The notes: a model not told the origin generated them from the letters alone. DNA of 17,863 nt from Methanobacteriota archaeon (GCA_963787255.1 CAWBCJ010000008.1:1-17863), one strand, 5' to 3'. Shown: positions 1-17,863, counted from the stretch's first letter. Program-made: numbers and translations.

Positions 1-440
1 TGATCCGAATCCTGAAAGAATTATTCCAATGGCATTTTCTTCTTGATCCTCTGCTAAAGCTTGAAAGAATAAATCAATTGGTCTTCTAAAACCATGAGGT
101 TCTAAAGGCTTAATAAGGCTTAATACACCATCTATAATTCCTATGTCCTTATTGGGGGAATGACATACACTTTATTTGGTTTAACAGGCATATTATCTTG
201 AATTTCAAGAACATCCATATCAGTATATCTTGCAATTAATTCTGCCATAGTGCTTTTATGTGTGCGGATCCGATGTTGAATCAAAACAAATCCTATACCC
301 ATATCAGAGGGCATATTACTAAATAAATCCTTTAAAGCTTCCAGTCCACCTGCAGATGAACCAATACTTACTATGGGAAACTTTCCTTTGGGGTTGATTT
401 TTGATTTTTTTAGAGTTTTATTCTGATTTTGTATTTTAAT
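1..440 (-). CDS. cheB: CheB-type methylesterase domain (probably the N-terminus of a CheB/CheR fusion); partial, frameshifted, runs off the window
   Basis: Manual translation: FPIVSIGSSAGGLEALKDLF...GFVLIQH...HKSTMAELIARYT...NKVYVIPP...RRPIDLFFQALAEDQEENAIGIILSGFGS. It contains the catalytic Ser (GSSAGG) and His (IQH) motifs. Frame breaks near 268 and 155. No ATG/GTG/TTG follows the GGGGA RBS. Confidence 0.9.
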
Positions 441-779
441 TCCCCTTTAAGCTAATTTAAATTAATTAGATTCATTTAAATTTTTAGCAAATTGAAAATT
501 ATTGAAGTCTAATTGATTTATTGTTATATTATACTTCAACTAATTAATAATGATATCTAAGTAAAAAAAATAGAGTTACAAACAAAGTTTAAACTATCTA
601 GACAAGATATAACTGTTTTTTTAATAAAATTAGTTGAAAAATGGAAAGATTGAATTAATCAGTAACTGAATCCCCCATTTGAATTACTATAGTTTAACCA
701 TTAAAACTATATTAACAATTTTTTTATAGTTATTAAAACAAAAAATATACTCATGCCTCAAAAAGATTATAAAAAAATA

Positions 780-1087
780 ATGGAAGAAAGCAACAAGCAG
801 AAAAAAATCATAGAACAATTGAATAAAACTCGTATTAGTATAATTAGGACCATTAAAGACAGGAAAAGAGTTGAATGGAATATTTGGATGCAGTAAAAAA
901 ACAAATGGGATACTGGACAAGCCAAATAGAAAATACTGATCCTGAAAAAGATAAAGAAAGATATAATGTAATTAAAAAGAATATTGAAATGGAAAAAACA
1001 CATATTAAACAAATCCAAGATGAATTAAACAGAATAAATGAAGAACTTAAAATGGAAAATGAACATAAAAATTCATATGATCATTGA
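780..1087 (+). CDS. Hypothetical coiled-coil protein (one frameshift near 873)
   Basis: ATG at 780 gives MEESNKQKKIIEQLNKTRISIIRTIKDRKRVE, which joins ORF 875..1087 (MEYLDAVKKQ...) with one indel. Charged, helical composition. Confidence 0.55.
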
Positions 1088-1183
1088 TTTACTTCCTATA
1101 TTCTTATAACGCAGTAAATTAACTTTAATACATAATTTAATGCATAAATAATTGTTTTATTATTTCATCTCCATTATTTCACC

Positions 1184-1297
1184 TCAGAATTCTCCATCAT
1201 CCAACATGAGCCATGGATCATTAAAGCTTTCTACCTTACCAGTTTGGCACCATCGAGTTCCGATCTTGTAATTGTCATCACTTGCAGCTGCTGCGGG
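1184..1297 (-). pseudogene. C-terminal remnant of a Pei-like pseudomurein endoisopeptidase
   Basis: Translates to PAAAASDDNYKIGTRWCQTGKVESFNDPWLMLDDGEF*, with the same W-L-x-x-DDGEF* ending as ORF 10154..10360. An in-frame TAA lies immediately upstream. Confidence 0.65.
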
Positions 1298-1448
1298 TTA
1301 AACTCGACTTTATCTAGCCAAAAGGTCGTTATAATGGTAATTATTTAAAATTGGCAAGATATTAAAAATTTATGAATTTATTGAGTTTTGTATAAAATTA
1401 GAACAATTAGATATATGTAGAGATAGTTATATAAGTCAAAGTTGAATT

Positions 1449-2038
1449 ATGGAATCTACACTATTTTTTTTAGCCATTGTGAGTTTTATAGCCACTAATT
1501 TAGATGATCTTTTTGTTTTAATGATATTTTTCGCACATCCCGATTATAAAAGTACCCAGATTATCATAGGCCAATACATTGGAATTTCTTCTTTAATTCT
1601 AATCGGCATTTTAGGTTATTTTTTCAAGTTTATCATACCTGCAGCATGGATAGGTTTATTGGGCATTTTCCCCATAATTATAGGTCTTAAAAAACTGATT
1701 GAATTAAAGAAAAAGCGATGATTCAAGCGATACAAAAGAAATAAAAGGTTTTCGTTCAAGATTTATAAATTCATCCATACTTTCGGTTGCAATTGTGTCT
1801 TTTGTTAATGGTGGAGACAATATAGGCGTTTATGCTCCTCTTTTTGCTACTTTAAACATTTATCAACTATATTTTGTAATTTTAATCTTTTTAATGATGG
1901 TGGGAGTATGGTGCTTTATTAGCTACAGATTAGTAAACAACAGGAGATTAGGTGGGAAGAATTCGTAAATATGGGCATTTAATCCTGCCATTTGTACTAA
2001 TTATCATTGGAATTTCTATTTTAATCCAGACATTCTAA
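1449..2038 (+). CDS. cadD: Cadmium resistance transporter (CadD family), frameshifted
   Basis: FIATNLDDLFVLMIFF, IIIGQYIG and WIGLLGIFPIIIG motifs. It continues in other frames as VSFVNGGDNIGVYAPLF...KYGHLILPFVLIIIGISIL, stopping at 2036-2038. Confidence 0.88.
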
Positions 2039-2187
2039 TACAAGTATAAATTTTTTTTTGAAAAATAGCACTAACCAACAATAGTTGGAGGGGGTTGAAG
2101 GCTAAAAAAATGGATATTAGACTTAGTAAATATAATTAAAATATAAATTTAATGAAATAATTGAATATAATTATCTAAAGGAGTTAT

Positions 2188-2280
2188 ATGAACGCTAAGC
2201 TCACTAAAAGAGCGCTGAAATTATCCTATTTCACTATTATCTATAATATTGCAGAAGGAATACTGGCTATTTTTGCAGAT
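2188..2280 (+). pseudogene. N-terminal fragment of a cation diffusion facilitator-like transporter
   Basis: GGAG RBS, then MNAKLTKRALKLSYFTIIYNIAEGILAIFA, resembling CDF TM1. The expected GSIALIGFGLDS continuation is absent. Confidence 0.6.
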
Positions 2281-2493
2281 TTAACTAAAATATCATGGTC
2301 CTCCATTGTGATCATTCTATGCTATTTCCTCACTCCATGTTTGACCGCAGAATTTTACACTTATAAAAACGTCCTCTTGTACAATTTCAATGATGTTAGA
2401 CCCCATTCATGGTAAAAATTTTTAAATCGGTAAATTTATTAATTTCTAAGATTATATTAATATAAAATGAGAAAAATAATTAAGAGGTAATTT

Positions 2494-2981
2494 ATGAAAA
2501 AAAACAACTCTCAATCAACAAAATCCCGGCCACTGAGCGAACAAGGCGGACCGGAAAATCACCGTGCTCGCACCCTAAGTGCAGAGAGCGTATTGGCAGT
2601 CTTGTTTGGGTTTGGCTTCATTTTAGGCTTTCTGTTGACTCCATTGGGAGTCGAAACTCGTATGCCTGAACTACGGACCCTGGCGTTCGCAGGGTTCTTC
2701 ATAACCGTGGGGTTGTTGCTTCCACTTGCCGGGCTGGTTTCGCTGTGGCTACGAAGACCGAGGCTCGCCGGCGTCTTCGCAGTAATCGACGCAGCGCTCC
2801 TTTTCCTCACCGCACCCGCCGACCAAGCACTGGTTTTCTTCACGGTCCCCCTCCGCCTGCCGTTACCCTCGGTGAGTACATTCTGATCTTCGTGGGCATC
2901 GGATACATGCTTTACGGACCACGAGTCTATGCCGAGAACCGAACACAGGCTGCGAATCTCTCTCAAGAACCGAACGAATAG
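2494..2981 (+). CDS. GC-rich hypothetical integral membrane protein (about 4 TM), frameshift near 2850
   Basis: ORF 2494..2886 joins the frame of 2745..2981 at the C-run (VFFTV-PPPPAVTLGEYILIFVGIGYMLYGPRVY). GAGGT RBS upstream. A hand count gives 35/60 GC at 2521-2580, against AT-rich flanks. Confidence 0.7.
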
Positions 2982-3044
2982 CGCATACTGTCCTCTTCGC
3001 GGGCCAGCTTCCAGAGCTCACTTTCTGAAGCCCAAAATGGTTAG

Positions 3045-3159
3045 TGGAGAAATTTATATGCACATTCTTCTATAGATTCCCTTACAGAATGCTCTTTTTT
3101 ATCTGATGCAAATTTCAATAAAGGTAGATTTATACTTTGAAATCTGGAATACCCATCAT
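3045..3159 (-). pseudogene. mrr: Mrr restriction protein N-terminal (Mrr_N wHTH) fragment
   Basis: MMGIPDF / SINLPLLKFASDKKEHSVRESIEECAYKF (one indel) matches the typical Mrr start IPDFQSIMLPLL..ASD.KEHS. It is cut off by a stop near 3042. Confidence 0.75.
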
Positions 3160-3167
3160 ATCACATC

Positions 3168-3230
3168 TTAACTTAAACTATCATCAATAATCCCTATTTC
3201 ATCATCTGTAAGCCCATATAACTCATGGAG
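3168..3230 (-). pseudogene. Extreme C-terminal remnant of a type IIG (Eco57I/TaqI-like) restriction-modification protein
   Basis: LHELYGLTDDEIGIIDDSLS* matches the common YELYGLT.EEI.II tail and lies directly upstream of the mrr fragment. Confidence 0.65.
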
Positions 3231-3348
3231 AATATTATAATATCAAGTTGTAGACTTTAAGGGCTATTTTTGATATAATTAATTTAATATTAGTATTAAT
3301 AGAAAGCAAGACGGAATAAATATTAATTTAAATGTTTATATCATTTTC

Positions 3349-3613
3349 CATTAATTAACAGTTACAGAATTAAAAAAAGCACAGTCTCCTGCAGGTGAAA
3401 GATAGAATCGGTATATACAGTATAAAAGCCTTGAGATTTGTAACATAATTTACACATTTAGATATAAAAAAAGCCTATAAAGTATTAAACAATATCCTAT
3501 AATTCTATTATTAATTATCCGATTCATTAATTAAATAATTAAAAAAGCACATTCTCACGCAATTGAAACTTGAATTCTGTATATACGGTATATACAAAAT
3601 ATATGGTATATAC
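3349..3613. repeat. Imperfect ~57-bp direct repeat (3368-3424 / 3537-3592) plus four GTATATAC palindromes
   Basis: AATTAAAAAAAGCACAGTCTCCTGCAGGTGAAAGATAGAATCGGTATATACAGTATA versus AATTAAAAAAGCACATTCTCACGCAATTGAAACTTGAATTCTGTATATACGGTATA. Both are preceded by CATTAATTAA. GTATATAC occurs at 3411, 3579, 3588 and 3606. Confidence 0.8.
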
Positions 3614-3665
3614 GAAAAGTCGGATAGACCTTCGTAGAGAAGTGAATAAAAAAATAGTATTATAC

Positions 3666-3942
3666 TTATTTATTTTTAATTATTTCTTTTAATTCTTTTA
3701 TTTGAACTCTTAATTTGAGTATGTGGGGAATTCCTTCCATAAAGAATAATTCAGGCTCTTTCTCCACATCATATAATTTTCTGTCATTTGCAATGAAACT
3801 ACCTTTGTTAAAGCTTGATGCAAGCATTTTTTTTTTTAACTAATTTATTTTTAGAATTTGTTGTAATTGCTTTTTGGAGGTCTTGTTCCTCAGTATCGTA
3901 AGTGAATCTGCCGTATTTAGTGTTGTAATAGTAAATGGCCAT
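3666..3942 (-). CDS. Small hypothetical protein, frameshifted
   Basis: MAIYYYNTKYGRFTYDTEEQDLQK... and ...MTEKLYDVEKEPELFFMEGIPHILKLRVQIKELKEIIKNK*, separated by A-homopolymer frame breaks. Confidence 0.4.
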
Positions 3943-4240
3943 TAAACCCTTATTTTATTTAATGTGATTTGTTATTTATTTTTGTGATTTTGATTTTCTT
4001 AACAAGTTTAAAAAGAGTAGTTTCTAAGTTGTTATAGCAGTGTATGGTGAAATGTATATAATCAATTTAGCAAAAAATTAACGATGCAAAATTGGAAATA
4101 CTGGTGTAAAATGCTTTAGAATCTATAATAGTAACTGATTTTTTGTAATTTAATTTTCTTAGACATTAATAATTGATTCATAAAAAACATAAGTATCATA
4201 AAAAATTTTTATGTTTATTATGAAATTTATGGTGAAAATA

Positions 4241-5390
4241 ATGAACCCCTTTAGAAAGAGAACAGGTATTTTTCCTTCGTATTTTACAGGTAGAGAAGAT
4301 GAACTTAATGAATTAAGGGAAATTTATGAATCTACGAGGGCAGGAGCAGCAGGACATATAATTATCTATGGACCTAAAGGTATTGGTAAAACTTGTTTAT
4401 TAATGAAATTTGAAGGAGAGCTAAAAAATACTAAAGATGTTTATCCAGTACGTATTCCACTTGTAGAAGGCAATTTTGATGATATTTATAGTTTAATTGT
4501 TGATAAATGTTCTGATGCTCTTGAAATTAAAGTAAGTCATTTTTGGGATAAAATTACATCATTAGGTGTTAATATTCCATTAGTAGGTGGAATGACCGTA
4601 TCAAAAGAAATACCTACCACAAGCCCTTCTGTGGCTCTTGAAAAGATATTGAAGACTATTTATGGAGAATTAGAAGGGGAAGATCCTGTATTAGTTCTTT
4701 TATTCGATGATCTTCAAAGAATATATCTCAGATAATGGTCCTACTAAGGTTTTAAGTATATTGCAGAATGCACTAGTTGAACTTAACCATAAAGGTATGA
4801 ATATTATGTTTGTAGCAACTGGGGCTCATGATATATTTTCACAAATACAAGATCATTTAGATTCTGCAGTAAGGATATTTGAACCGTATGAACTTAAACC
4901 ACTGTCTAAAGATGAATTAAGGGATGCTATAATTATACCGGCCCAATATGAAGGTGTTGAAGTTACTGGGGAAGTTGTAGAAAGAATATATGATATTTCG
5001 GATGGAATACCATATTATATGCAGGTTATAGCATACAATTGTTTTGCTGAAGCTTCTGAAAGTAAAATAGGGATTGAGGAATTCAAAAAATCTTTCCCAC
5101 GTTCATTAGATTTGTTGGCTCAAAGGGAATTTAGGGGAATGTATGAAAAATCAACTAATGAAGAAAGAAAAATCCTTGGATTAATGGCAGAAAGTCATGA
5201 AGATATTCTTTCTTATAATGAAATTAAAGAAGGCTTAGATTCGAAATCAGAACCTTCATCATGGTTAAGAAATATGGAAAAAAAGAATACTATTGTAAAA
5301 AGATCTAGAGGAAAATATCAGCTTCGTGATAGGATATTTAAGGAATATTTGAAAACAATGAAGCCATATAAAGAAAATGGAACTTATTAA
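4241..5390 (+). CDS. Archaeal AAA+/P-loop ATPase (AAA_16/ATPase_2 type) with C-terminal winged helix; frameshift near 4725
   Basis: GGTGA RBS then MNPF...FTGREDEL, Walker A GPKGIGKT, Walker B LLFDDLQ, and a GIPYYMQ motif. The C-terminal RSRGKYQLRDRIFKEYL looks like a wHTH wing. ORFs 4211..4735 and 4707..5390 overlap. Confidence 0.88.
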
Positions 5391-5515
5391 TTAAGAAATT
5401 ATTTTTTGTGGAATATAATTGATAGCTTCATTATAGGGCTATATATTGAACATGTAGGTTAAAAATAATCGAGTTTAACGAAATAAACCAAGTTAAACAA
5501 TCATTAATGAACTAT

Positions 5516-6086: not shown

Positions 6087-6720
6087 TTATTTTTTATATT
6101 TTTTGTAAATAATGAAACCTATTACAGCTATTACTAGTCCAATTACCACTATTTCTTCAGATATTGCTAATTCAGATTCTATTTGTCTATATAAGCTTCC
6201 AAATTGCCATGCCAGGAATCCTAAAATAAATGCTCTCACTAATGTTCCGAAAAAAGTTATAGTAATGTATTTTTTAATATCAAACTTAATAAATCCGCAA
6301 AATGCACTGATAACAACACTAGGCACTATAGGAAGAGCTCTTGTAGTGAAAATTGATAATTCCATTAGATTATTTTTGGAATATTTTTCTTCTGTTTTTT
6401 CTATTTCCTTCCAGGATAATCCAAGATATTTACCCCACCGGTCAACAAAAGGCTTACCTACCCGGTAAACAATTCCATAAATAAGTAAAGAATCCAATTG
6501 TAACTCCTGCGGCTGCAGGTAATGCTATATAAAGGAAAAGTTTTTCAAATGCTTGAACTGATATTTGAGAATTTTCCATTATAAAAAAGCTTGAACCCAT
6601 TATAACAGCCGTAGAAGGGATAGGGGCAATAATTTCTTCAAGAATACTCCCAAAAAAGATACCCCACGAACCATAAGTGATTATAAATTCTTCTAAGAAC
6701 ATTGCTAACTCTGCAAACAT
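6087..6720 (-). CDS. DedA/VTT (SNARE-associated) family membrane protein, frameshift near 6490
   Basis: GSILEEIIAPIPS, YRVGKPFVDRWGKYLG and RALPIVPSVVISAFCG motifs across two overlapping ORFs. Confidence 0.88.
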
Positions 6721-6845: not shown

Positions 6846-9098
6846 TTAATCGGTAGGTATAGTAAAATAAAAAGTAGAACCCACGCCAAAATCTGACTCC
6901 ACCCACACACGGCCACCATGACGATCAATAATCCTCTTAAAAACCGCTAATCCTATTCCTGTTCCTTCATATTCATCAATGGTATGTAAGCGCTTGAATA
7001 CTTCAAATATTTTGTGAGTGTATTGTTTTTCCATTCCTATTCCATTATCACTGACTGAAAAGACATATTCATTTTTTATTTTATCTGTTCTAGCTGAGAT
7101 ATGGATCCTTGGAGGAAATTGAGGTTTTCTATATTTAATAGCATTACCAATCAAGTTCTGGAAGACCCTAACCATCTGATCAGGATCCGCAATAACATTT
7201 GGAAGATTATCAAATGTTATTTCTGCATTAGACTCATCAATAGCAAAATTTAAGTTAGAAACAGCCTTTTCAACCTTAACATTCATATCAACTTCTTCAA
7301 ATTCTTTTCCGTCGCTATCAATACGTGAATATTCAAGTAAACTGTGAATCTGCTCTTTCATGCGAATACTTGCTTCTACAATGTAATTAATGAATTCGTC
7401 CGCATCTTCATCCAATTTATTTTTATAACGCCTTTCAATGAGTTGTGTGAAGCTTGCAATAGTACGTAAAGGCTCCTGCAAGTCATGAGATACCACATAA
7501 GCAAACTGTTTTAGTTCTTCGTTGGAATGTTCTAAATCTGTTAATGATTTTTTTAATCTGTCTTCTGCTTTTTTACGTTTTGTAACATCATTTAAAATCA
7601 ACACAACAGAAATAGAACCATCAAGGTTAGTTATAGGAGTAGATAATGCATCATAAGTCTTATCTAACTTGGATAAGTATTGTTCCCATTCAAACGTGCC
7701 GCCTTGAAATGATTGTTGCATTTTGCATTCCGAACAGACTTCAGGATTATTATAAAAGTATTCATAACATTTATGTCCTTTTAATGGTCCAAACTCCTTT
7801 TTCATTGCAGGATTAATGTACTCTATTTCATAATCCTTATTTATAATAGAAATTCTGTTAAGTGTTGTGTTCAATATATTACTCAGTTTATTTCTTTCTA
7901 TTTGAAGCTCTGCTGTACGTTTTTCAACCAGTTCTTCAAGATTATCATGTGCACGTCTTAACTCTTCTTCTATTTGCTTGCGCTTGGTAATATCCATTGC
8001 AATACCAATCACGTATTTTGGCTTCCCTTTACTGTCAGGAATAACTGTACTTGACCATGCCAGTTGAATTAGGCGTTCATCCTTTGTTTTCCAGTAATTC
8101 TCAAAATAATCAAGAGACATTTCTGCCTTTAACTCACTCCAGGCCTTTTTAACCGCATCAACTTCTTCGGGTATAAGCAAAAAATCCCAAACTTTCCGAT
8201 TTTTGACCTCTGCAAATGAATATCCTGATACCTCCTCACAGTAACGGTTAAAACCTATAATCCTTCCATCTTTATCTTGGATAAGAATAGCTGCCCTTGC
8301 AGTTTCAAGCACCGCCGCATTAAACTCAGATTCCCTACGAATAGCTTCATCTACTTTTTTTTGCTTGGTGATGTTTTTTGTGATTCCAACAATGCGAACC
8401 GGGTTTTGTTTTGCATCTTTGATGATGGTGGCAATGTTACGAAGCCAAACTGGTTGTTTTCCATAACGAAACTCAATATCTGATTTTTTCCCTGTTTCCA
8501 CCAATAACTCCATAGAGCGTTGCACTTTTTCCCTGTCATCTGGATGAACAGGAGAAAACGCATCTTCAAAAGTATCTGGTAGTTCAAAATCTGGAATGCC
8601 CAGAACTTGCGTAGCGTTTGAAGACCAGGTAATCTTTTGCGAGACTAAATCAATATTCCATGAATACATATTAGCGGCTTCAATTGCTATTCGCATTCCC
8701 GCTTCACTATCCTCAAGAGCCTCTTCTACCTGTTTACGCTCGGTAATATCGGTGGACAGTAGAAATATTCCTTCAGGCACAGGCTCTACACGTGCATCAA
8801 ACCAAGCTTTATGGCCATCCGGAAACGTAAATTCATTTTCAAATGAAACGGCCACCCTTTCGTTCATACACTTTTGAAGTACAGCAAAAAGTTCTGTCTG
8901 TTCAATAAAGGGATACACATCCATAATGGCCCTACCTATAAAATTATCCTTTTCGGCACAGTTTTGTCTGGCAGCAGCATCATTAACATACAAATACCGC
9001 CAATCAGAACTAATTATCTGACAACCTTCAATAAAATTATCAAATATACTGTAATTTCCTCCCACACTTAAGAAAACCTCTGCATTGCTCTTTTCCAT
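6846..9098 (-). CDS. Cytoplasmic multi-PAS sensor histidine kinase (bacteriophytochrome-type kinase core)
   Basis: Four PAS/PAC units ending DITER, NITKQ, DITKR and DVTKR. H-box SHDLQEPLR, N-box QNLIGNAIKY, G1 DNGIGM, G2 GTGIGLA. Intact 750 aa. Confidence 0.96.
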   Translation of the reverse strand: MEKSNAEVFLSVGGNYSIFDNFIEGCQIISSDWRYLYVNDAAARQNCAEKDNFIGRAIMDVYPFIEQTELFAVLQKCMNERVAVSFENEFTFPDGHKAWFDARVEPVPEGIFLLSTDITERKQVEEALEDSEAGMRIAIEAANMYSWNIDLVSQKITWSSNATQVLGIPDFELPDTFEDAFSPVHPDDREKVQRSMELLVETGKKSDIEFRYGKQPVWLRNIATIIKDAKQNPVRIVGITKNITKQKKVDEAIRRESEFNAAVLETARAAILIQDKDGRIIGFNRYCEEVSGYSFAEVKNRKVWDFLLIPEEVDAVKKAWSELKAEMSLDYFENYWKTKDERLIQLAWSSTVIPDSKGKPKYVIGIAMDITKRKQIEEELRRAHDNLEELVEKRTAELQIERNKLSNILNTTLNRISIINKDYEIEYINPAMKKEFGPLKGHKCYEYFYNNPEVCSECKMQQSFQGGTFEWEQYLSKLDKTYDALSTPITNLDGSISVVLILNDVTKRKKAEDRLKKSLTDLEHSNEELKQFAYVVSHDLQEPLRTIASFTQLIERRYKNKLDEDADEFINYIVEASIRMKEQIHSLLEYSRIDSDGKEFEEVDMNVKVEKAVSNLNFAIDESNAEITFDNLPNVIADPDQMVRVFQNLIGNAIKYRKPQFPPRIHISARTDKIKNEYVFSVSDNGIGMEKQYTHKIFEVFKRLHTIDEYEGTGIGLAVFKRIIDRHGGRVWVESDFGVGSTFYFTIPTD

Positions 9099-9437
9099 CT
9101 TTATCCCCTGTCTAGTTCGGCAAATTCACAAGATAACTCTCTATTGCACTAAAAAAAGGAACCATTATTCTCTTGGACTAATGTTCAATAATAATATATT
9201 TTCCATTTATTTATTTTTTATGATTTATTTTCAACAAAAAAAATAATATTTAATTTAAACTATTATGAGATTAAGTTTATAAGCATATAACTATATTATT
9301 ATGCTTTGATTTACATTATTTTTTATTAAAGTTTCTATTATTTGATAATACTATTTTATTGATCATTTAAGTTAGTATTTACTAGTATATGCAAATGATT
9401 TTATATAAGATTTAATCTTATATCATTTTAGATAAAA

Positions 9438-9854
9438 ATGACAATAAAAATACTCTTAATAGAAAATAAAACTGCTAAAAATAGTGTAGCGAATATATTG
9501 CAGGATTTAACTGTTGAAAACAGTGTAGAACTAAAAATTTTAGAGGATGAAAATGAATTAAGTGATTTCTTTAAAAAAGAGCCCAACCAACATTTTTCAA
9601 ATCATATCATTATATTTAATTTAAACCAATTATCAGAAAACGTTCTTAATGTTATACAAACTATTAAAGAAGATTCACAGTTAAATCATATCCCTATCTT
9701 TGTTTTAACAGATATTTCAACTTATGAAAATACTATTAAAGCTTATACGTGTCATGTGAATTGCTATATTATAAAACCTGAAGATTTAGAAGGGCTTATA
9801 AGTATTTTAAACTCATTTAAAGAGTTATGGTTAAAACACGCGGAAATACCATAA
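9438..9854 (+). CDS. Stand-alone response regulator receiver (Rcp1-like), degenerate phosphorylation site
   Basis: KILLIEN...IIIFNLN...IPIFVLT...KAY..HVNCYIIKP...ELWL. The fold motifs are kept but the acceptor Asp position is Asn. Confidence 0.85.
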   Translation: MTIKILLIENKTAKNSVANILQDLTVENSVELKILEDENELSDFFKKEPNQHFSNHIIIFNLNQLSENVLNVIQTIKEDSQLNHIPIFVLTDISTYENTIKAYTCHVNCYIIKPEDLEGLISILNSFKELWLKHAEIP

Positions 9855-9864
9855 CATTTTTCAA

Positions 9865-9999
9865 TTATTTAACGATTTCAAAACAATCTCTAACTGTTTC
9901 TTCTTTTATATTATCCCTACATTCACACATTTTAAAACGTCCAGTGCCGACAGACCAACCTAAACCACCGCAAAGTGGACATTTTTGTATTCTTTCCAT
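9865..9999 (-). CDS. 44-aa putative zinc-finger microprotein
   Basis: GAGG RBS, then MERIQKCPLCGGLGWSVGTGRFKMCECRDNIKEETVRDCFEIVK* (CxxC...CxC). It falls below the ORF-track length cutoff. Confidence 0.6.
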   Translation of the reverse strand: MERIQKCPLCGGLGWSVGTGRFKMCECRDNIKEETVRDCFEIVK

Positions 10000-10070
10000 T
10001 AATAGGCCTCAATTTAGTTTAACTATAATTAAATAAAATATAAAAAGTAGATTTGACATATTAAAATATT

Positions 10071-10120
10071 GGACCACTCCGGGACATGGCTTGGTACCCC
10101 CATATATGTCCCGGACAATC
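10071..10120 (-). other. GC-rich stem-loop in the 3' flank of the pei-like gene
   Basis: Perfect 10-bp inverted repeat TCCGGGACAT (10078-10087) / ATGTCCCGGA (10106-10115), extendable with G-U pairs on the minus strand. Confidence 0.6.
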
Positions 10121-10153
10121 CTTCAAAACTTTTTTTCATTTATATCTGCAATT

Positions 10154-10860
10154 CTAAAATTCTCCGTCATCAACGAGAAGCCATAATGGATTTTTCACAA
10201 GTTCTGTAGGTTTTCCACTGCACATATACTGTCCAATGCTTACTTTCCATTTCATCATACCTGCTGCGTCGAATATCTTATTATTTTCATCGTAAGTAAC
10301 CCAAATATGGCCGCCGCATTTAAATTTACCCCGCCAAATATTAACATTTTTACGGTTCATTTCAATTAAAATAACTCCTTACAATCTGGCTTATATCCAC
10401 ACAGTTAGCTCCTGGAGGACCTATTTTTTCTAAATCTTTTAAGACTGATTCTGGTTTTTTCTTATCATTTACATAATGTTCATAGTCGGGATGGTTTTGA
10501 AATGCTACTTGCATTTCTTCGGGAGTATCAAATTTTCTTTTTAAAACTCTTTCAAGTCCTAACCATAATTCTGATTTTCTGTTTTTTCCAGTTACAATAC
10601 TCCATGGTTTCATCAAAGCAAAATCAGCAACCATTCCACTAGTATTGAAATAGTCTAATATCATACTGTACATGTAGACTAGGTTAGGTAAATCCTAGAT
10701 GGTTTCCTAGGCTGGTTTGATATGCGAAGTCCGGTGCCCTGTTTTCCTTGTCTGCAAGCTTTTTAATTGCAGATGCGATAGTCAAGTATTCATTTCTAGG
10801 TATGTTGCCCGCTGCTTGATCTCATCTCTTGGATTTGCAGGTCCACTAATATTTTTATAT
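10154..10860 (-). CDS. Pseudomurein-binding repeat protein with PeiW/PeiP-like cysteine endoisopeptidase domain; 5'-truncated, frameshifted
   Basis: Joined frames: GNIPRNEYLTIASAIKKLADKENRAPDFAYQTSLGNHLGF..LVYMYSMILDYFNTSG..KPWS (PMBR-like), then YEHYVND, GANCVDISQ (Cys), KCGGHIWV (His), IFDAAG (Asp). Confidence 0.8.
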
Positions 10861-13023
10861 TGGAACAATTTTCTAAGACACTTATGGATTTTGGACTTAC
10901 ACAGATAGACGCCGATATCTACATTTTTCTTGCAAAGAAAGGTACTCAAAAAGGACTAGAGATACGCAACGCACTAAAACTAACCAAAGAACAAATCTAT
11001 TCCAGTTTAAAAAACATGAAGAGCAAAGGAATCATAAGCTCCACCATTGAGCATCCCGCTCGGTTCAGCGCTTTGCCCTTCGAAAAAGTTTTAGATCTAT
11101 TCATAAAAGCAAAGGTGGAAGAAACACAGCGTCTTCAACAAACCAAAGATGAAATTCTCTCCAATTGGGAGAGCCTCAAAATTGCAGAAAACGACAACTC
11201 AGCAAAGTTCACAGTGATCCAAGGCCGAACCTTCATCTACTCAAAAATCCAACAAATGATTCAAGAAACAACAAAACAAGTCCTCACCATAACCACAGTG
11301 CCAACCCTGGCACAAGCCGACCAACGAGGCATTTTCGATCTAATCAACAATCTTCCCTTGAAAACAAACGTTAGATTCCGATTTCTAGCTGAGTTATCAC
11401 AGCAAAACGCATCCGCAATTAAAGCTCTACTAAACGACACAACAAACGCTAAGCTCAACATTGAAGGCAGAAACCCTGACCTCGGATTGACTCTTTTTCC
11501 TCAGATGCTCATAAGAGACGAGGAAGAAGCGCTGTTTTTTGTTAAGCCCAGAAAGGAAACATCAATAATAGAACAAGACGATGTATGTCTTGTGGACTGA
11601 CTGCAAAACTCTTGTAAAAGCGTTCACAGCAATTTTTGAGGAACTTTGGCACAACTCAACAGACATACGAGAAAAAATACTTGAAATCGAAACCGGCAAA
11701 CCCGCACCAAAAACGATTATTATTCAAGATGCCGAAACTGCAAAAAAGAAGTATGACAAGATCTTGAGGATCAGCTAAAGAGGAAATCATAGCCATGACT
11801 TCCTCCAAAGGTCTTGTAGAATTATCAACAAACTTGCCGCAACTAAATGATTGGAGCGAAAACAACAGTTAGTCGTGAAAATTATGGCTCCAATAGTTGT
11901 CGAGAACCTCGAAGCGGCTAAACATCTCTCACGCTTCTGCTCGGTTAAGCATGTTCCACCAAACTATAAGCAAACTATCATAGTCGATGGAAAACACCTC
12001 TTCCAATTCACCACTTCAAATCCGAGAAACCCACAGAGCGATTCAACATTACAATTCGAAAATACGCTTTACACAACTGATCCCAAATATGTCCAAAAAA
12101 CCAAAGCGATGCTACATGAAATCTGGAAAAATTCAAATTCTCTATCGAGTGATAATCTGGAATCGATATTTGGAACAAGTGTTCGAAGTCAAAGTGCATA
12201 TTTTCCAGGAGCAATTCGAAGGTCCTGGTCCTGACGGAACGTTTCAGCCTCTTCCTCCAGCTGACCAAGCAAATAAAGACAATTATGCAGTTATCGAAAT
12301 TGTTGACGATGACCCATTGGAAAAACTGACAGAGCAGGACGTTTTAAACGAAATCATTAGTACACAGAAATTTCCAGAAAAAAATCACATTGGACTATAC
12401 AAAATCTATTCCAGTCAAGCAATAGCTATCATAAACCCACCAGACTTCTTCAAACTACCACCAATTCTGATTCGAATTCACCATATTGAAAAACACTCCA
12501 CTTTTGGAGAAGAAGATGTCATAATAATTAACTTGTGGCTTGAGACACCGAATGGTTATGCATATGTGCCAGTCGCTGTCTTTACCGACAGCCCCGAAGC
12601 TCAAGACAATGTGGAAAAAACAGTTCTCAGCAACACCTGCAGGTCGAAACGTTCAGTTGGCCAAAAAAGACGAGTTACAAGTATCGGTGCATGGCAATAC
12701 TATGTTTGCAGGTTGGACAATGCCAATCCCGCTTTTTCCTGAACAAAACATCCTTCCACCTGCATGCATATTAGTTGAAGGATACGGAAACGTCAAGAAC
12801 CGAAGCTTACACAGTCGTTCAACCTTCTGGAGGAAAGTTTAGCGCCAAACAAAACGGCTTCGATGCCTTCGTAACTTTCATGCATCCATCTTCAAAATAC
12901 TCTGGACCAGGTACCGATGGATTCTTAGTAAGAGATTTCATCGGCGAAATTAACCTGGAATTCATCAAAGGTTTCCAATCACGTCTCCAAACTAAACTAA
13001 TTGAAAAAACGAAATCCCAGTAA
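10860..13023 (+). CDS. Long (~700 aa) TrmB-family transcriptional regulator, split by several frameshifts
   Basis: N-terminal wHTH LMDFGLTQIDADIYIFL...YSSLKNMKSKGII...PARFSALP. Two effector-like units end AFTAIFEELWHNS and KAMLHEIWKNS. Consecutive overlapping ORFs 10860, 11581, 11851, 11987, 12540 and 12775. Confidence 0.85.
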
Positions 13024-13141
13024 AACGTGATACTGGATTATTTTAGACTTTGACGATTACTTTGCTAACCTTCGTAGCTGCATCTAACAAAGCTCATGAG
13101 AAATACCTCTTTAGCCAACTAAAGTATTTTTACTGGTAAAT

Positions 13142-13169
13142 TGGGGCTAGGATCCCCCTCTCGGCGCCA
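13142..13169 (+). repeat. tRNA-Ser 3'-end fragment / att-like site, copy 1
   Basis: TGGGG-CTAGGAT-CCCCC-TCTCGGC-G-CCA: T-stem, 7-nt loop, acceptor 3' strand, G discriminator and CCA. No 5' half is present. Confidence 0.8.
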
Positions 13170-13454
13170 ATTAACCAGTTAGGGTTATTCTCAAGCTTAC
13201 TTTGTATAAAACCTACATAGTTGAGACGAATAGTCTTCGCTTAGGTTTAGTTTCCCTAATCCATCTGAGCGAAGGAAGGTCCCAAAGTTTCCGGACACCA
13301 AATAAGTCGAAAACTTAAGAGATGATAAAAGATTGGAAAAAAAGTTCGGCGAGTACATTGCCGGGAAAGATGACGCTGGAATTGGGCGCTAACAAGATTT
13401 GCTTTTGAGATTTGGGGTCAAACTAAAGAAGAAATGGAATAGCTGGTTGACTTC

Positions 13455-14039
13455 TCATTTGGCGATCACTGGTTTGAATGATCGAATCCCGATAAATCGT
13501 GGAACTTTCTTGCAATATTCTTCATATGGTTGCCCGTACTGTTGACGTAACCAGGGTTCTTCGCTGAAAGGAATGATGAAAAATAAAAATATTGCAAATG
13601 CGCCAGTAACTAAAGCCATCAATGACCAAGAAACAAGAATTATTATCCCGCTGTATAGAATTATAAAGCCAACGTACTGTGGGTTTCGTGTGAAATGGTA
13701 AGGTCCCTCGGTTACTATTTTTCCCTTCTCGCCAAGACTTTGTTGTGCAGTTAACGTTTTAGTTCCCCAAAGGTCAATTCCCAATCCAAGCCCAAATAAA
13801 AATCCTCCAACCACGAATCGGATCCAATGGCTGTAACTTAGCGATTGAAAATCAAGTAATCCAATCAATGGTACGCCAAACATTACAATGGTAAATAGCG
13901 TCCAGCTTACCCATTGTTGCCACGAATCTTTTCTTGGAGGCGGCCATATACGTGACTTCGGAAATAATGTGCTGACTGCTATAACTAGGAGTAGAGAGAA
14001 ATCCGAAAAAAGGATCAATGCAAACAGCCATAGGTTCAT
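13455..14039 (-). CDS. Isoprenylcysteine carboxylmethyltransferase / PEMT family membrane methyltransferase
   Basis: IVTEGPYHFTRNPQYVG and EEPWLRQQYGQPYEEYCKKVPRF motifs with multiple TM segments. Confidence 0.92.
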   Translation of the reverse strand: MNLWLFALILFSDFSLLLVIAVSTLFPKSRIWPPPRKDSWQQWVSWTLFTIVMFGVPLIGLLDFQSLSYSHWIRFVVGGFLFGLGLGIDLWGTKTLTAQQSLGEKGKIVTEGPYHFTRNPQYVGFIILYSGIIILVSWSLMALVTGAFAIFLFFIIPFSEEPWLRQQYGQPYEEYCKKVPRFIGIRSFKPVIAK

Positions 14040-14185
14040 GACTTCAGTTAGAGTAGGTAGGAGTGATATTAGGTTTTGGAAAAAATTACATTCTGAACAG
14101 GCGTCAGCAAATTATTAATTGCTAGAAAGCCTTTCTGTTTAATTGTATTAATAATTCTAAATGATTCTAAAAGTGGAGTAGTGAA

Positions 14186-14757
14186 TTGCAGTTGAAGATT
14201 CGGGAAAGTGACATGCCAAAAGAGGAAGAATGGACCCAGTTTTTTGACCCTGAAAAAGCACTGAGCCTTTTAGGCTTAAATCATAAAGTAGTTAATGTGG
14301 CGGATTTTGGTTGTGGCTATGGAACTTTCACTATACCTGCTGCAAAAATAATCGCTGGAAAAATTTACGCTTTTGATATTGAACCTGAAATGATTGAGGC
14401 TATTGGGAGGAGGGTGAAAGCACTTTCTCTTGGTAATGTGGAGGCGATTCTTCGAGATTTCTTGGCGAAAGGTTCTGGGCTAAAGGATGGGAGTGTTGAC
14501 TATGTATTTCTTTTTAATATCCTCCATCTTGAAAAACCTGAAGGCTCTACTAAAAGAAGTCTTACCGAATTTTGGAGGTTGGCGGTAGGGTTGGAATTAT
14601 TCACTGGAACTATGACCCCACAACCCCCAGAGGTCCGCCAATGGATATTCGCCCCAGACCTGAACAATGCAGAAGATGGGCTGAATCGGTTGGGTTTATT
14701 TTTGAAAAAAAGCTCGACTTAAAACCATATCATTATGGCCTTGTTTTGAGGAAGTAA
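14186..14757 (+). CDS. Class I SAM-dependent methyltransferase, frameshift near 14545
   Basis: Motif I VADFGCGYGTF, YAFDIEPEM and VDYVFLFNILH. C-terminus GGRVGIIHWNYDPTTPRGPP lies in ORF 14572..14757. Confidence 0.9.
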
Positions 14758-14782
14758 GCAGTTTTTTTTCAGCGCTTAATAA

Positions 14783-14884
14783 TTATTGTTTTCTTGGGGC
14801 ATTACGCCTTCTAAATAACAAGAAGGCAACTATAACAACGGCGATAGCTACAACTATCAATATTGCAACGTATACCAAGAGCAT
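14783..14884 (-). CDS. Small single-pass membrane peptide or C-terminal anchor remnant
   Basis: MLLVYVAILIVVAIAVVIVAFLLFRRRNAPRKQ*: a hydrophobic helix plus basic tail. It may extend upstream through a frameshift. Confidence 0.45.
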   Translation of the reverse strand: MLLVYVAILIVVAIAVVIVAFLLFRRRNAPRKQ

Positions 14885-15110
14885 GTCTTGTTCCCGCTTG
14901 CGGAATTTCTTTATTCCCAGTTGGAGCACTATCAGAAAACCTAAAAATCCGCAATATCCGCTTGAAGAAATCCGCAAGCCAGGTCCAGTGGGCGACTGTG
15001 ACATGGTGTATGAAATAAAAAATTGAAAGCAAGAATTGTCGCGTCAATCATTAGTTAAAGTTCCGTAACTTTAAATTTCAGCACTTAACAATACATTACT
15101 GGAGATTTTT

Positions 15111-15548
15111 ATGCCTGAAATGAATTTTGAAGGAACTGCCACGTGGAAAGGTGCAACTGAATGCGAACTCTCAATCAAAGGAAATAAACTTGTAACGGTT
15201 AGCCCACCGCCATCTTTTGGAGGAAAAGAAGGCTACTGTGTTCCTGAGGACATTTTCGCCGCTGCACTGGCTTCATGCATCAACACACTATTTCTGTTGA
15301 TTGCTAAGAACAGCCAATTGGGGCTCAAGAACCTAGAGACTGTTGCAAACGTAAAGATGAATGTAGAAGGCATGGAGAAACTAATTTTTACAAACGTCCA
15401 CTTCAACATGAATGTTGGCTTGGAAAACGACAATGAGCGTGAACGCAAAAAAGCTACCACAGTCTATGGAATGGCGCAGAAGATTTGTCCCATAAGGCAA
15501 TCTTGGGGAGACGCAGTTCCCATAAGTTTTGAACTCAACTTTAAGTAA
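15111..15548 (+). CDS. OsmC/Ohr family protein
   Basis: GGAGA RBS, PPPSFGGKEG..PEDIFAAALASC and AQKICPI. Both conserved Cys are present. Confidence 0.92.
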   Translation: MPEMNFEGTATWKGATECELSIKGNKLVTVSPPPSFGGKEGYCVPEDIFAAALASCINTLFLLIAKNSQLGLKNLETVANVKMNVEGMEKLIFTNVHFNMNVGLENDNERERKKATTVYGMAQKICPIRQSWGDAVPISFELNFK

Positions 15549-15720
15549 AACCTATTTTCACCCTTCTTTTTTAAAATGTTCAACAAAAGAAAGATATGGA
15601 ATTAACTTCAAAAAATATAAAAATAAAGTTTCGTTTAAAAACCCACAATAGGTTATAATTGAGGCAACAGTTTCAGTAACTTAATTTTTTCATAAGAGGA
15701 AAAACAAGAATAATTAAGTA

Positions 15721-15750
15721 ATGGGCTAGAATCCCCCTCTCAGCTCTCGG
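15721..15750 (+). repeat. tRNA-Ser 3'-end fragment / att-like site, copy 2 (degenerate)
   Basis: ATGGGCTAGAATCCCCCTCTCAGC is near-identical to copy 1, followed by a second TCTCGG. It lacks GCCA. Confidence 0.7.
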
Positions 15751-15868
15751 AATTCAGGCTTCAGAAAGACCATAATATCAAAGTTCGTCAACGATGCGTT
15801 TTATGTGCTATGTTGTTCCATTAATTGCCCATTTTAAGGGAATGATTATCATTTTTCCTTTAAGCATG

Positions 15869-16140
15869 TTAAGTCTTACTTTTGAACCTGGTAGGTTCAC
15901 CCATCAGTTTTGAATACGGATCTTGAATAATTATGATTTCAGGTTCCTTCCCCAGTCCTTTTGTCAAGGTTTCTAACTCGGTAAAGGAAAAAATTAGACC
16001 CATTCTCAACTTTTCGCGCGGCATCCCATTCAAGGGCGGTAAGCTCAACATTCTGCAAATCTCCTTTGGAAGACTTAACTTCAATTTCTCTTGTTTCCCT
16101 TTTGCATCTGGAAAGAATGTCGTATCCGCAATGAACTTTT
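15869..16140 (-). pseudogene. C-terminal part of a hypothetical protein
   Basis: The open frame KKFIADTTFFPDAKG...EPEIIIIQDPYSKLMGEPTRFKSKT* abuts the oppositely oriented hicA remnant. No convincing start. Confidence 0.4.
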
Positions 16141-16143
16141 TCT

Positions 16144-16269
16144 TTCGATTCGACAATGAGAACAGTCGTAGTTCCAAAGCATCAAGAAATTGCCATTGGC
16201 ACGCTCAAAGGCATTTTGTTGCAAGCCGGGCTTCCAGATGATGAATTTCTCAACTCAGTTGGTAACTAA
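16144..16269 (+). pseudogene. hicA: HicA toxin, C-terminal half only
   Basis: RTVVVPKHQEIAIGTLKGILLQAGLPDDEFLNSVGN* is a canonical HicA tail. An in-frame TGA sits at 16132 and no GSH motif is found upstream. Confidence 0.8.
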
Positions 16270-16482
16270 ATTTTTAAATCCAAAACCAAGGTAGCTACTG
16301 GTTCGCCGTTCAACGCCCGTTCCTTCTCCCAAGCTTCAGCGTATTCAAACCAAAGCTCAAAAGCCTCTTGGAAATTTTTTAAAGCTTCATCACAAGTTTT
16401 CCCTTGACTAGTAAACGCCAGTTACCGGATCAGCTGCAACATACAATTCCCCTTCTTTGTGTACAGTAATTCCGATTTTCAT
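16266..16482 (-). CDS. hicB: HicB (UPF0150) antitoxin, one extra base near 16413
   Basis: MKIGITVHKEGELYVAADPVTGV-TSQGKTCDEALKNFQEAFELWFE...LDLKI*. Confidence 0.85.
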
Positions 16483-16641
16483 CGAAGATGCCTGAAATCA
16501 TAACTGTGTACGGTTCTTATTAAACTCGCTCATGCAAAATTCCATTCTATTGCCACAAAATTTGGGCACTTACACACGTAAACTGGTGATAGAAGCCGGG
16601 TTATGAATTTGAGTAAGTGAAAATTTTGACATGCGATTTGA

Positions 16642-16667
16642 ATGGGGTTAATAATCTCTCGGCGCCA
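16642..16667 (+). repeat. tRNA-Ser 3'-end fragment / att-like site, copy 3
   Basis: ATGGGGTTAATAATCTCTCGGCGCCA shares CTCTCGGCGCCAATT exactly with copy 1. Confidence 0.78.
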
Positions 16668-16801
16668 ATTTACGGGTAAAGTACTTCAGTTTTTATGCAC
16701 AAATAAGTGCAATTAAAAATTATTTGCACCTGCATTAGCATACGAAAGTACAAAAATGCTTTTATTATCGATACAGCATTCGTATTACCAACTGATGAAC
16801 G

Positions 16802-17014
16802 ATGGAAACAGTTACAGTATCTAAGAAATATCAAATCGTAATCCCCGAGAAGATACGCAAACAATCAGGAATTAAACCCGGAGATAAGATGGTTGCTATT
16901 ACTAAACATGGAATTATCCAGTACATACCTGTTCGACCCATAAAAGAAACAGAAGGATTTATCCTAGGACTTGACACAAAAGGCTTACGCGACGAGTCTG
17001 ATAGAATTGATTAG
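16802..17014 (+). CDS. vapB: AbrB/MazE/SpoVT-family antitoxin (VapB)
   Basis: VTVSKKYQIVIPEKIRKQSGIKPGDK motif, overlapping the downstream PIN gene. Confidence 0.92.
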   Translation: METVTVSKKYQIVIPEKIRKQSGIKPGDKMVAITKHGIIQYIPVRPIKETEGFILGLDTKGLRDESDRID

Positions 17015-17378
17015 TATAGATAGCTTTGGATGGACAGAACGATTCACAAAAGGGCCGAAGGCACCGCAATACAAAAAAATAATTGAATCAATGCAGCCTA
17101 AAGAGATAGTGACTTCGGTTGTTGTACTCTACGAAGTCTACAAAAAAATAAAAAAAGTAAAAGGAGAAGAAGAAGCTTTACTAGCAGTTGCCGCTCTTAG
17201 CCAGACGACGATTGTGCCAGTTGACCAATCAATTTCACTTGAAGCAGCAGATTACAGTCTTGAACATAATCTGCATTTTGCTGACGCACTTGTTTATGCC
17301 ACTGCTCGCCATTTGAAGGCTAAACTCTATACGAGCGATGATGATCTGAAGGCATTAAAAGACGTGTATTTTGTGTAA
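17007..17378 (+). CDS. vapC: PIN-domain VapC toxin
   Basis: Probable TTG start at 17007. Acidic catalytic residues in IDSFGW, LYEVYK, FADALVYA and YTSDDD. Confidence 0.93.
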   Translation: MISIDSFGWTERFTKGPKAPQYKKIIESMQPKEIVTSVVVLYEVYKKIKKVKGEEEALLAVAALSQTTIVPVDQSISLEAADYSLEHNLHFADALVYATARHLKAKLYTSDDDLKALKDVYFV

Positions 17379-17456
17379 CAGTACGAGAAGTATCGTTTCA
17401 ACAACTCCTTGTACGATATTGTTTTGTCATGAAATTCAAATGAGTTTAAGCAAATA

Positions 17457-17466
17457 CTCGGCGCCA
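17457..17466 (+). repeat. tRNA-Ser 3'-end fragment / att-like site, copy 4 (short)
   Basis: CTCGGCGCCA, intergenic, followed by the same downstream motif as copies 1 and 3. Confidence 0.65.
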
Positions 17467-17514
17467 TTTTTCAGGTAAAAATGCTTACCTTTCCATGTTA
17501 TAAACGGATACTTG

Positions 17515-17863
17515 CTATGCAGTGCCTTTTCTGAAAAATGCGGAGTCTTTCATCGCTGCCATGGCTCCCTCTCCTGCTGCGTAAGAGACTTGCATTCCCC
17601 CGCAAGTGCAATCTCCCGCTGCAAAAACGCCCTTTATGTTAGTCCTTTGCTGTCGATCAACAGTTGGCATCCGGTTCTATCGGTGGTTATTCCTGCGCTT
17701 TTACTATTGCCGTCATGGGTACACCGCCCAAAGAAACAAAGACTCCGTTTACAGCTTTTTCTGTAGCTTGTTTATTGTCATATTCGAGTATTTTTACGGC
17801 TTTAACAACCTGATCACCTATAATTTCAGTAACTTGTCCCTTAGCGATTTCAATGTTAGGTCT
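17515..17863 (-). CDS. trxB: Thioredoxin reductase-like NAD(P)/FAD oxidoreductase, C-terminal part (frameshifted, starts beyond the window)
   Basis: VTEIIGDQVVKAV...VNGVFVSLGGVP...VDRQQRTNIKGVFAAGDCTCGGMQVSYAAGEGAMAA, including the second FAD motif. Confidence 0.85.

Follow-up and report, generated by a model that had tools for sequence, protein, structure and literature searches.

In the 'gene capture' papers of She et al., mobile elements reportedly integrate in tandem at archaeal tRNA genes. In streptococci, cis-mobilisable elements (CIMEs) are formed by accretion, and Xer-exploiting integrative mobile elements (IMEX) borrow the host Xer recombinase. The attC sites of integrons form imperfect palindromes in which R''/L'' and L'/R' boxes occur and the crossover point reads GTTRRRY. 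According to published work, archaeal elements can integrate in tandem at one locus and can lose their integrase genes afterwards (PMC8371274), integration of the Sulfolobus spindle-shaped virus (SSV) type splits the integrase gene (PMC7253208), and integron arrays lacking an integrase occur in archaeal metagenome-assembled genomes (MAGs) and are movable in trans (PMC9668308). Here we describe an array of repeated tRNA-Ser 3' ends on contig C8 (CAWBCJ010000008.1) of a genome bin of 2.47 Mb and 29 contigs assigned to a Methanobacteriota archaeon (GCA_963787255.1). The whole 17,863-nt contig was analysed and is referred to as the window. An earlier note on this DNA had read the region from about 13.1 to 17.5 kb as small, integrase-free modules captured repeatedly at a tRNA-Ser gene.

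The explanation that we favor, with a probability of roughly 0.6, is that positions 10,863-17,863 are a Bathyarchaeia hot spot between a tRNA-Ser(GGA) gene and a thioredoxin-reductase-like gene, filled by serial site-specific insertion of small modules without a recombinase of their own; as part of this explanation, the younger modules would be a lineage-specific family ending in a T-run, an element end of ~30 nt (P) and a tRNA-Ser core. It starts from four copies of a putative attachment (att) site:

13127-13186, plus strand: att copy 1, consisting of P (13127-13156), the tRNA-Ser core (13152-13169, overlapping P) and the P'-like start of the next module.
15715-15750, plus strand: att copy 2, with a degenerate P and a core altered in its 3' half; a 19-mer is held in common with copy 1.
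16640-16680, plus strand: att copy 3, a decayed T-arm-like stretch, a 12-nt tRNA end and a P'-like flank.
17446-17490, plus strand: att copy 4, 11 nt of the tRNA end and, behind them, the native downstream flank.

These repeats are real, far above chance, co-oriented and intergenic. The sequence CTCGGCGCCA occurs exactly three times, always on the plus strand (13160, 16658 and 17457); at up to one mismatch, the expectation is 0.17 matches, and three or more were obtained in 0 of 200 shuffles. A repeat finder returned the same three positions as a 23-nt family extending 13 nt beyond CCA, and a 19-mer just upstream of the CTCGGCGCCA region recurs at 13144 and 15723 (0.01 expected). All four copies lie between the open reading frames (ORFs) of the ORF list, at spacings of 2.6, 0.9 and 0.8 kb, as the earlier note had claimed, with the qualification that copy 2 is altered and copy 4 short. 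Copy 2 (15723-15750) keeps the T-arm-like half and has an altered 3' half, with GGCGCCA gone and four substitutions in its core relative to the 18-mer of copy 1; in copy 4, just ~11 nt of the tRNA end are left. Judged by reading of the sequence, the frame across copy 1 closes after 36 codons, and neither the ORF list nor Pfam places an integrase-like ORF in contact with any copy. Elsewhere in the bin, the CTCGGCGCCA motif is absent.

Positions 13152-13169 carry an 18-mer identical to the 3' end, with its CCA, of an intron-bearing Bathyarchaeia tRNA-Ser(GGA), and exact stretches of 10-18 nt of this end are present at copies 1, 3 and 4, which bears out the proposal that the repeats are duplicated tRNA-Ser 3' ends. 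Searched against one genome per species, the 18-mer had 30 exact matches. Half of these (15/30) are the 3' ends of intron-containing tRNA-Ser(GGA) genes in MAGs of Bathyarchaeota or uncultured archaea, and ARAGORN, with introns allowed, calls tRNA-Ser(GGA) in locus L048 and others; nine belong to tRNA-Ser genes of Methanolobus and other euryarchaeal records, and five are chance matches in GC-rich genomes. The last, in a Bathyarchaeia MAG (L030), is a non-tRNA copy resembling copy 1, with 85% identity over 59 nt to positions 13112-13170. A 17-mer specific to this variant was also tried: among its 49 matches in representative genomes, L030 alone is related and the others are at chance level, and a viral collection gave 0 matches.

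The tRNA is not that of the binned genome, which is a methanogen (a McrA domain is found on contig C29; a search of the bin for archaeal AmoA gave no match, its control likewise matching nowhere). The bin's three tRNA-Ser genes (TGA, GCT and GGA) end differently and encode no CCA, and were rejected as the source. The 18-mer was not found, at up to two mismatches, in 40 relatives, and for a 20-nt pattern of T-arm plus acceptor in 151 genomes of the methanogen family, the closest among the matches listed (more than 500 in total) has two mismatches.

The right-hand end of the window places the array in its native context, through one further gene:

17512-17863, minus strand: 3' part of a thioredoxin-reductase-like gene, with a weak Pyr_redox_2 match and a frame broken by single-base indels.

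This gene is the convergent right neighbor of tRNA-Ser(GGA) in Bathyarchaeia relatives, and its counterparts in L027, L048, L042 and L038 show 82-85% amino acid identity (tblastx). The site in L027 is empty, the thioredoxin-reductase-like gene lying 153 nt behind tRNA-Ser; in L048, L038 and L042 the distance is 1.9-3.1 kb, with differing small genes between. With its flank, copy 4 is similar to the tRNA end of L027 and what follows it, and it appears to be the oldest remnant. A 642-nt contig from soil-metagenome run X1 (15 differences) has the body of tRNA-Ser intact and fused, at 16656, to the vapBC module, the last of the array; a close relative thus has the tRNA directly before vapBC where the window has copy 3 before vapBC. 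In metagenome locus L227, the vapBC module follows a different module and sits between a P-plus-core unit and a decayed tRNA-like copy, and its right end is homologous to that in the window. Other metagenome contigs break at 13157-13163. The polymorphisms of L027, X1 and L227 are those expected if modules enter at the tRNA and shift older ones to the right, and from the synteny and the tRNA-vapBC contig we therefore infer serial insertion between tRNA-Ser and the thioredoxin-reductase-like gene.

Occupied sites in other relatives extend this picture. An intact tRNA precedes inserts in L048, L127, L129, L136, L140, L160 and L180, as well as in X1 record 6. In L127 and L178, a conserved stretch of ~190 nt comes straight after tRNA-Ser, and this stretch is separated from the tRNA in L140 and L180 by a 917-nt insert, which contains a single 144-aa ORF and terminates in P and a duplicate tRNA core; in L140, a second P-plus-core unit follows 1.1 kb onward. 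Further inserts measure 1555, 1748, 1756, 1845 and 2198 nt (in L160, L048, L136, L127 and L129), and Pfam assigned no family to the cargo of L140 and L048. In L190, the gene is a tRNA-Ser(TGA), followed at 767 nt by a P with TGA-type core bases; the right half of the core is therefore target-derived. The tails of nearby Val, Pro, Glu and Arg tRNAs were compared with P cores as well and do not match, tRNA-Ser(TGA) in L190 alone fitting. Upstream of tRNA-Ser, the relatives carry genes for an FKBP-type isomerase and an iron-containing alcohol dehydrogenase family protein (from ORF clusters), as well as a 127-aa protein that is glyoxalase-like by reading. With an empty site in L027, single and double inserts in L048 and L140, and the tRNA-vapBC contig, repeated capture at tRNA-Ser has held up, and serial tRNA-anchored capture is supported as the probable origin of the array.

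As a mechanism, small modules would enter one by one at the tRNA 3' end via site-specific recombination, and each insertion would rebuild the tRNA end from incoming DNA while shifting the previous tail copy, together with all earlier inserts, to the right. On this order of events, age and decay would be greatest in the rightmost copy (copy 4), and the leftmost (copy 1) would be the youngest. Each module has one to a few ordinary accessory genes but lacks a recombinase, which would therefore be supplied in trans.

The array lies in a contig that changes origin near 10,860. The GC fraction is 0.27-0.32 up to ~10 kb and rises to ~0.40 beyond 10.5 kb. In tblastx, positions 1-5400 match contig C25 of the same bin at 81-99%, and they look like a strain variant or duplicate of it. 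A 750-aa PAS histidine kinase of the window has methanogen paralogues and belongs to a large paralogous expansion: it has 55 matches in the bin, and most relatives within the genus have 23-58. A repeat domain at 10,581-10,865 on the minus strand, to which Pfam assigned no family (10,584-10,812), has six or more paralogues in C25. From 10,863 rightward, by comparison, the best relatives are Bathyarchaeota loci, and in three soil-metagenome runs of one study, which contain 5-8% of the sampled words, contigs match from 10,863 rightward only, none covering 9000-10,860 or bridging whole modules. Because the switch truncates both neighboring genes, the repeat-domain gene and the first codons of a TrmB-like gene, the join of methanogen and Bathyarchaeia DNA is probably a chimeric assembly, although a real transfer into the methanogen may account for it instead. 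Positions 10,863-17,863 appear by their GC and their best relatives to be Bathyarchaeia-type and not methanogen DNA, and in practice the contig is unsuitable to be read as methanogen DNA. The cassette reading of the earlier note is borne out in part.

Two features of the contig could be taken to suggest that the array itself is an assembly artefact, with repeats collapsed or misjoined in a noisy long-read contig: the probable chimera at ~10,860 and the many single-base indels. Compared with short-read metagenome contigs, 1-nt indels are found at 17580, 17587, 17665 and 17698, within the thioredoxin-reductase-like gene, which suggests that many of the contig's frameshifts are assembly errors. 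The array's joints, however, recur in independent assemblies, namely the junction of the TrmB-like gene and P (X3 record 18; L197, L219 and L230), P plus core followed by vapBC (L227), the tRNA-vapBC joint (X1 record 6), and the last copy followed by the thioredoxin-reductase-like gene (L027), so that an artefact is scarcely credible. Genes split by single-base frameshifts were seen at 4211-5390, 6087-6720, 10,860-13,023, 14,186-14,757 and 17,380-17,700. Within the DNA of GC 0.27-0.30 there is also a patch at 2001-3500 with GC 0.41, and at 2494-3063 ORFs overlap on both strands, their predicted proteins being compositionally unusual for the region.

The element end P, i.e., the ~30 nt left of the tRNA core, is common to copies 1 and 2, the L030 copy and the insert of L048, where it marks the right boundary. 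A degenerate 18-nt pattern built on P matched 43 stretches of representative genomes, 27 of which are MAG contigs of Bathyarchaeota or Bathyarchaeia, and at least 80 metagenome contigs, with the full 30-nt form (at most five substitutions) in 55 among the matches listed. P is absent from the remainder of the methanogen bin, and a possible viral source was dropped, the two matches in the viral collection both being chance occurrences inside a phage gene. At up to two mismatches, 28 of the 81 genomes from the genus to which genome G177 belongs have P, with one to nine copies each, as do 3/121 genomes of a family sample and 4/201 of an order sample; at up to three mismatches, five genomes hold 5-7 copies each. 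Clusters of P (neighbors at most 13 kb apart) are co-oriented in 12 cases out of 13, and co-oriented arrays with sites less than 4 kb apart are present also in G178, G207, G477, G483 and G525. The possibility of a motif scattered genome-wide in both orientations, raised in the earlier note, is therefore true as regards several loci per Bathyarchaeia genome and untrue as regards the orientation of clusters. A dispersed repeat of the type of miniature inverted-repeat transposable elements (MITEs) or repetitive extragenic palindromes (REPs) was considered and rejected, given one to nine copies per genome, co-oriented clusters and copies with a tRNA-Ser tail. A role of P as the 3' end of a coding sequence on the opposite strand was rejected as well: two variable positions fall at third codon positions, but the frame differs between L133 and L172.

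Serial insertion predicts reassorting flanks, with the same module before differing older neighbors and differing modules before the same native flank. At P, one left cluster (with a 131-aa gene) is combined with six right clusters and the TrmB-like gene with four, and the right cluster that contains the tRNA flank occurs with seven left clusters. A broader proposal, which we put forward as tentative, is a genus-level cassette system in which modules with a palindromic P plus core are inserted at tRNA-Ser and at existing sites, excised and reshuffled by a recombinase encoded elsewhere; jointly with this, and just as tentatively, such a system might have evolved out of a tRNA attachment site and be functionally analogous to integron cassettes.

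P is approximately the reverse complement of the tRNA's last bases plus flank, and P, core and the start of the next module (in copy 1, P, core and the P'-like flank) together make an imperfect palindrome of 13-17 bp with a loop of 14-16 nt, whose right arm contains GTT followed by purines. Expressed as z-scores, the DNA hairpin reaches a significant -4.07 in copy 1 (0 of 200 shuffles fold as well), -6.28 in L225 and -5.10 in L030, with a weaker -1.99 in L140; it is absent from copies 2-4 (z = +1.38 in copy 2).

Modules could also have been moved by homologous recombination, with units of ~80-280 nt (P, core and the ~190-nt stretch) as portable homology through which host machinery excises, inserts and shuffles them. 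The ~190-nt stretch behind the core is indeed common to seven contexts, and module exchange between tandem archaeal elements is discussed in PMC8371274. We nevertheless consider this improbable, because the breakpoints of independent contigs fall within a few bases (13157-13163) and are not spread along the homology, and because the palindrome has been kept as such, its arms in L030 showing one compensatory change (variation being too low for a real covariation test). Recombination would have been site-specific.

The position of P behind genes could be explained in yet another way, namely by selection for a functional cis-element at gene 3' ends that combines a terminator with a tRNA-like processing or stability signal. 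In many loci the T-run stands directly behind co-oriented genes, DnaJ-like in G177, G178 and G477 and TrmB-like in at least four contexts, and the T-arm-like hairpin with CCA would suit such a signal. Archaeal T-runs end transcription, however, and a T-run upstream of the tRNA-like part would stop transcription first. The T-loop is non-canonical, an Rfam search over 12,900-17,863 gave sub-threshold chance matches only and none at the sites, and the duplicated real tRNA end and the empty and filled sites would be left unexplained, all of which makes a cis-element very unlikely. The DnaJ-like gene itself (306 aa, by reading) is followed within ~20 nt by a P variant in L244:8106-9046, L247:5185-6145 and L256 (flipped) 7675-8635, in genomes G178, G177 and G477, and the sequence beyond P differs. 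A second recurrent element was seen 100-300 nt right of P in L133, L141, L179, L185, L244, L252 and further loci of Bathyarchaeia; when read from the other strand, it resembles the remains of a tRNA T-arm, and it may have served other elements, integrated the opposite way round, as attachment site.

The modules between the att copies carry the following genes:

10863-13023, plus strand: TrmB-like regulator, body of the leftmost module ('module 0'); Pfam TrmB helix-turn-helix, 44 bits.
13455-14039, minus strand: PEMT/ICMT-family membrane methyltransferase, module 1; Pfam PEMT, 59 bits.
14186-14757, plus strand: class I S-adenosylmethionine methyltransferase, module 1; Pfam Methyltransf_25, 47.7 bits, with a frameshift near 14560.
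14783-15004, minus strand: small ORF, membrane-like by reading, module 1; sub-threshold Pfam matches only.
15111-15548, plus strand: OsmC-like protein, module 1; Pfam OsmC, 43.1 bits.
16156-16266, plus strand: C-terminal fragment of hicA, module 2; Pfam HicA_toxin, 27.5 bits, profile positions 32-58 only.
16269-16482, minus strand: hicB-like frameshifted ORF, module 2; HicB_lk_antitox, 14.9 bits, below the cut-off.
16802-17014, plus strand: vapB, AbrB/MazE-type antitoxin, module 3; Pfam MazE_antitoxin, 35.2 bits.
16971-17378, plus strand: vapC, PIN toxin, module 3; Pfam PIN, 64 bits.

Pfam agrees with the gene content given in the earlier note, with the restrictions that hicA is fragmentary, that the hicB-like ORF is weak, frameshifted and on the opposite strand, and that the methyltransferase is frameshifted. 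The TrmB-like gene itself makes up an additional module, which has copy 1 at its end. In the window it lies in several frames, its first codons lost at the junction with methanogen-like DNA, and it shows 74% amino acid identity over 243 residues to Bathyarchaeota locus L131. Its intact relative in L230 encodes 699 aa with TrmB and Regulator_TrmB domains and stops 13 nt before the same element end P. In module 1, PEMT has 83% and 78% amino acid identity to Bathyarchaeota MAG loci L119 and L120, respectively, and the methyltransferase is syntenic with it (73.6% nucleotide identity over 1.3 kb between 13470-14757 and L119). Metagenome contigs matching from 15107 have different sequence upstream, and OsmC is possibly a separate sub-module. 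The vapBC pair shows 73% amino acid identity to its best Bathyarchaeota relatives, and its module is 81% identical at the nucleotide level to L227 over 623 nt. The claim that the small modules lack an integrase also stands: Pfam found no Phage_integrase in the searched ORFs of 13.1-17.5 kb, and a six-frame PF00589 search of the whole genome found no match, hence no tyrosine recombinase, on contig C8.

An insert without an integrase may also be what is left of a larger one. Ordinary islands or proviruses with an integrase could have entered tRNA-Ser in tandem and later lost integrase and backbone by deletion, leaving the array; tandem integration and integrase loss after integration have both been described for archaeal elements (PMC8371274). 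The frameshifted genes and the truncated hicA/hicB of the array fit such erosion, as do fragments resembling the C-terminus of a terminase large subunit (by reading, not by family search), two copies of which adjoin the non-tRNA copy of L030 (L030:3-380 and 2377-2847), and an element with ParB and an integrase ~250 nt from P in L237 and L248. Yet inserts that arose independently behind tRNA-Ser are all small, at 917-2198 nt, and share the same conserved 30-nt end; their cargo consists of ordinary chromosomal-type genes with no replication or capsid functions, and PEMT plus methyltransferase stand in non-att contexts in L119 and L120. Of 119 non-redundant ORFs (230-560 aa) located no more than 6 kb from a P, moreover, just two match Phage_integrase, and the same unit of gene plus P recurs beside different right neighbors. 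Erosion of ordinary islands is on this evidence unlikely, though the least unlikely of the rivals considered here.

The element of L237 and L248 (L237:1153-7620 and L248:10,253-16,501) is ~6 kb long and carries ParB-like, winged-helix-like and unknown genes (by reading), together with a zinc-ribbon tyrosine integrase (Pfam), its far end lying ~250 nt from a P site. This integrase is one of the two Phage_integrase matches near P. The element was considered as an autonomous partner of the modules and rejected: the integrase abuts another tRNA, on the opposite strand, and no second P was found. Zinc-ribbon tyrosine recombinases of 425-440 aa are encoded in all five P-bearing genomes examined, and nothing ties them to P. 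Recombinase action in trans is nonetheless plausible.

Several observations weigh against serial site-specific capture at tRNA-Ser. No recombinase linked to the sites was found, none of the 55 P-bearing metagenome loci (many of them partial contigs) has the terminal overlap of a circular form, and the compared metagenome contigs contain no joint that skips a whole module. ARAGORN finds no tRNA in the window, so the array's left end is unseen, and several array genes are frameshifted, as expected of decaying islands. Four of seven positions in the T-loop-like part of P depart from the real T-loop, so the crossover cannot lie within it. Many P copies stand at loci other than tRNA-Ser, followed by non-tRNA-like sequence, and a co-oriented upstream tRNA-Ser(GGA) is found at 9 of 92 P-bearing loci, most loci being too short to tell; a simple one-target model does not explain the copies away from tRNA-Ser.

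If modules do move as units with a borrowed recombinase, they would constitute a gene-cassette platform in an abundant, uncultured archaeal class, in which the tRNA tail serves as docking site, and a second, independently arisen route to integron-like gene shuffling. Such a platform would explain the turnover of accessory genes (toxin-antitoxin pairs, stress proteins, methyltransferases and regulators) at fixed Bathyarchaeia hot spots. The conserved site of ~45-60 nt offers a direct handle that is searchable in metagenomes and testable with candidate recombinases. A literature search returned no description of the P-plus-core unit, although the supplementary lists of archaeal attC sites of PMC9668308, in whose main text the word 'tRNA' occurs 0 times, might include such sites; the relevant portions of a paper on Bathyarchaeia viruses mention integrases and no such site (PMC10848311).

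Set beside the known systems, the array shares with archaeal tRNA 'gene capture' the direct repeats of a tRNA 3' part, stacked inserts, inserts without an integrase and the decay of older copies. It differs in that its inserts measure 0.8-2.6 kb, compared with several to tens of kb, in that there is no element backbone, and in that the younger inserts share a palindromic end of ~30 nt. Tandem elements targeted to tRNA genes would be expected to have an integrase inside or beside each element, whereas none is found in the searched module ORFs, and, unlike in SSV-type integration, no integrase fragments flank the inserts of the window. With CIMEs and IMEX, the array has in common att-bounded DNA without an integrase, stacked at a specific chromosomal site, and, putatively, dependence on a recombinase encoded elsewhere; those systems are bacterial, however, and here neither an autonomous partner with the same att site nor a dif-like site was found. 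The likeness to integrons and to clusters of attC sites lacking integron integrases (CALINs) lies in co-oriented small modules of one to a few genes, an imperfect palindrome at the module end, toxin-antitoxin cargo and the lack of a neighboring integrase. As defined in PMC9668308, CALINs have at least two sites less than 4 kb apart, and the four window copies, 2.6, 0.9 and 0.8 kb apart, are spaced accordingly. Unlike in integrons, there is no IntI, the site is conserved in sequence and not in structure only, a tRNA-Ser 3' end makes up its right half, and the primary point of insertion is a tRNA gene rather than an attI behind intI; it is on the lack of IntI, and not on attC-model scoring, that we set P-plus-core arrays apart from the integron/CALIN family. 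By analogy, then, the array would be a tRNA-anchored accretion that resembles integrons and CALINs in its working.

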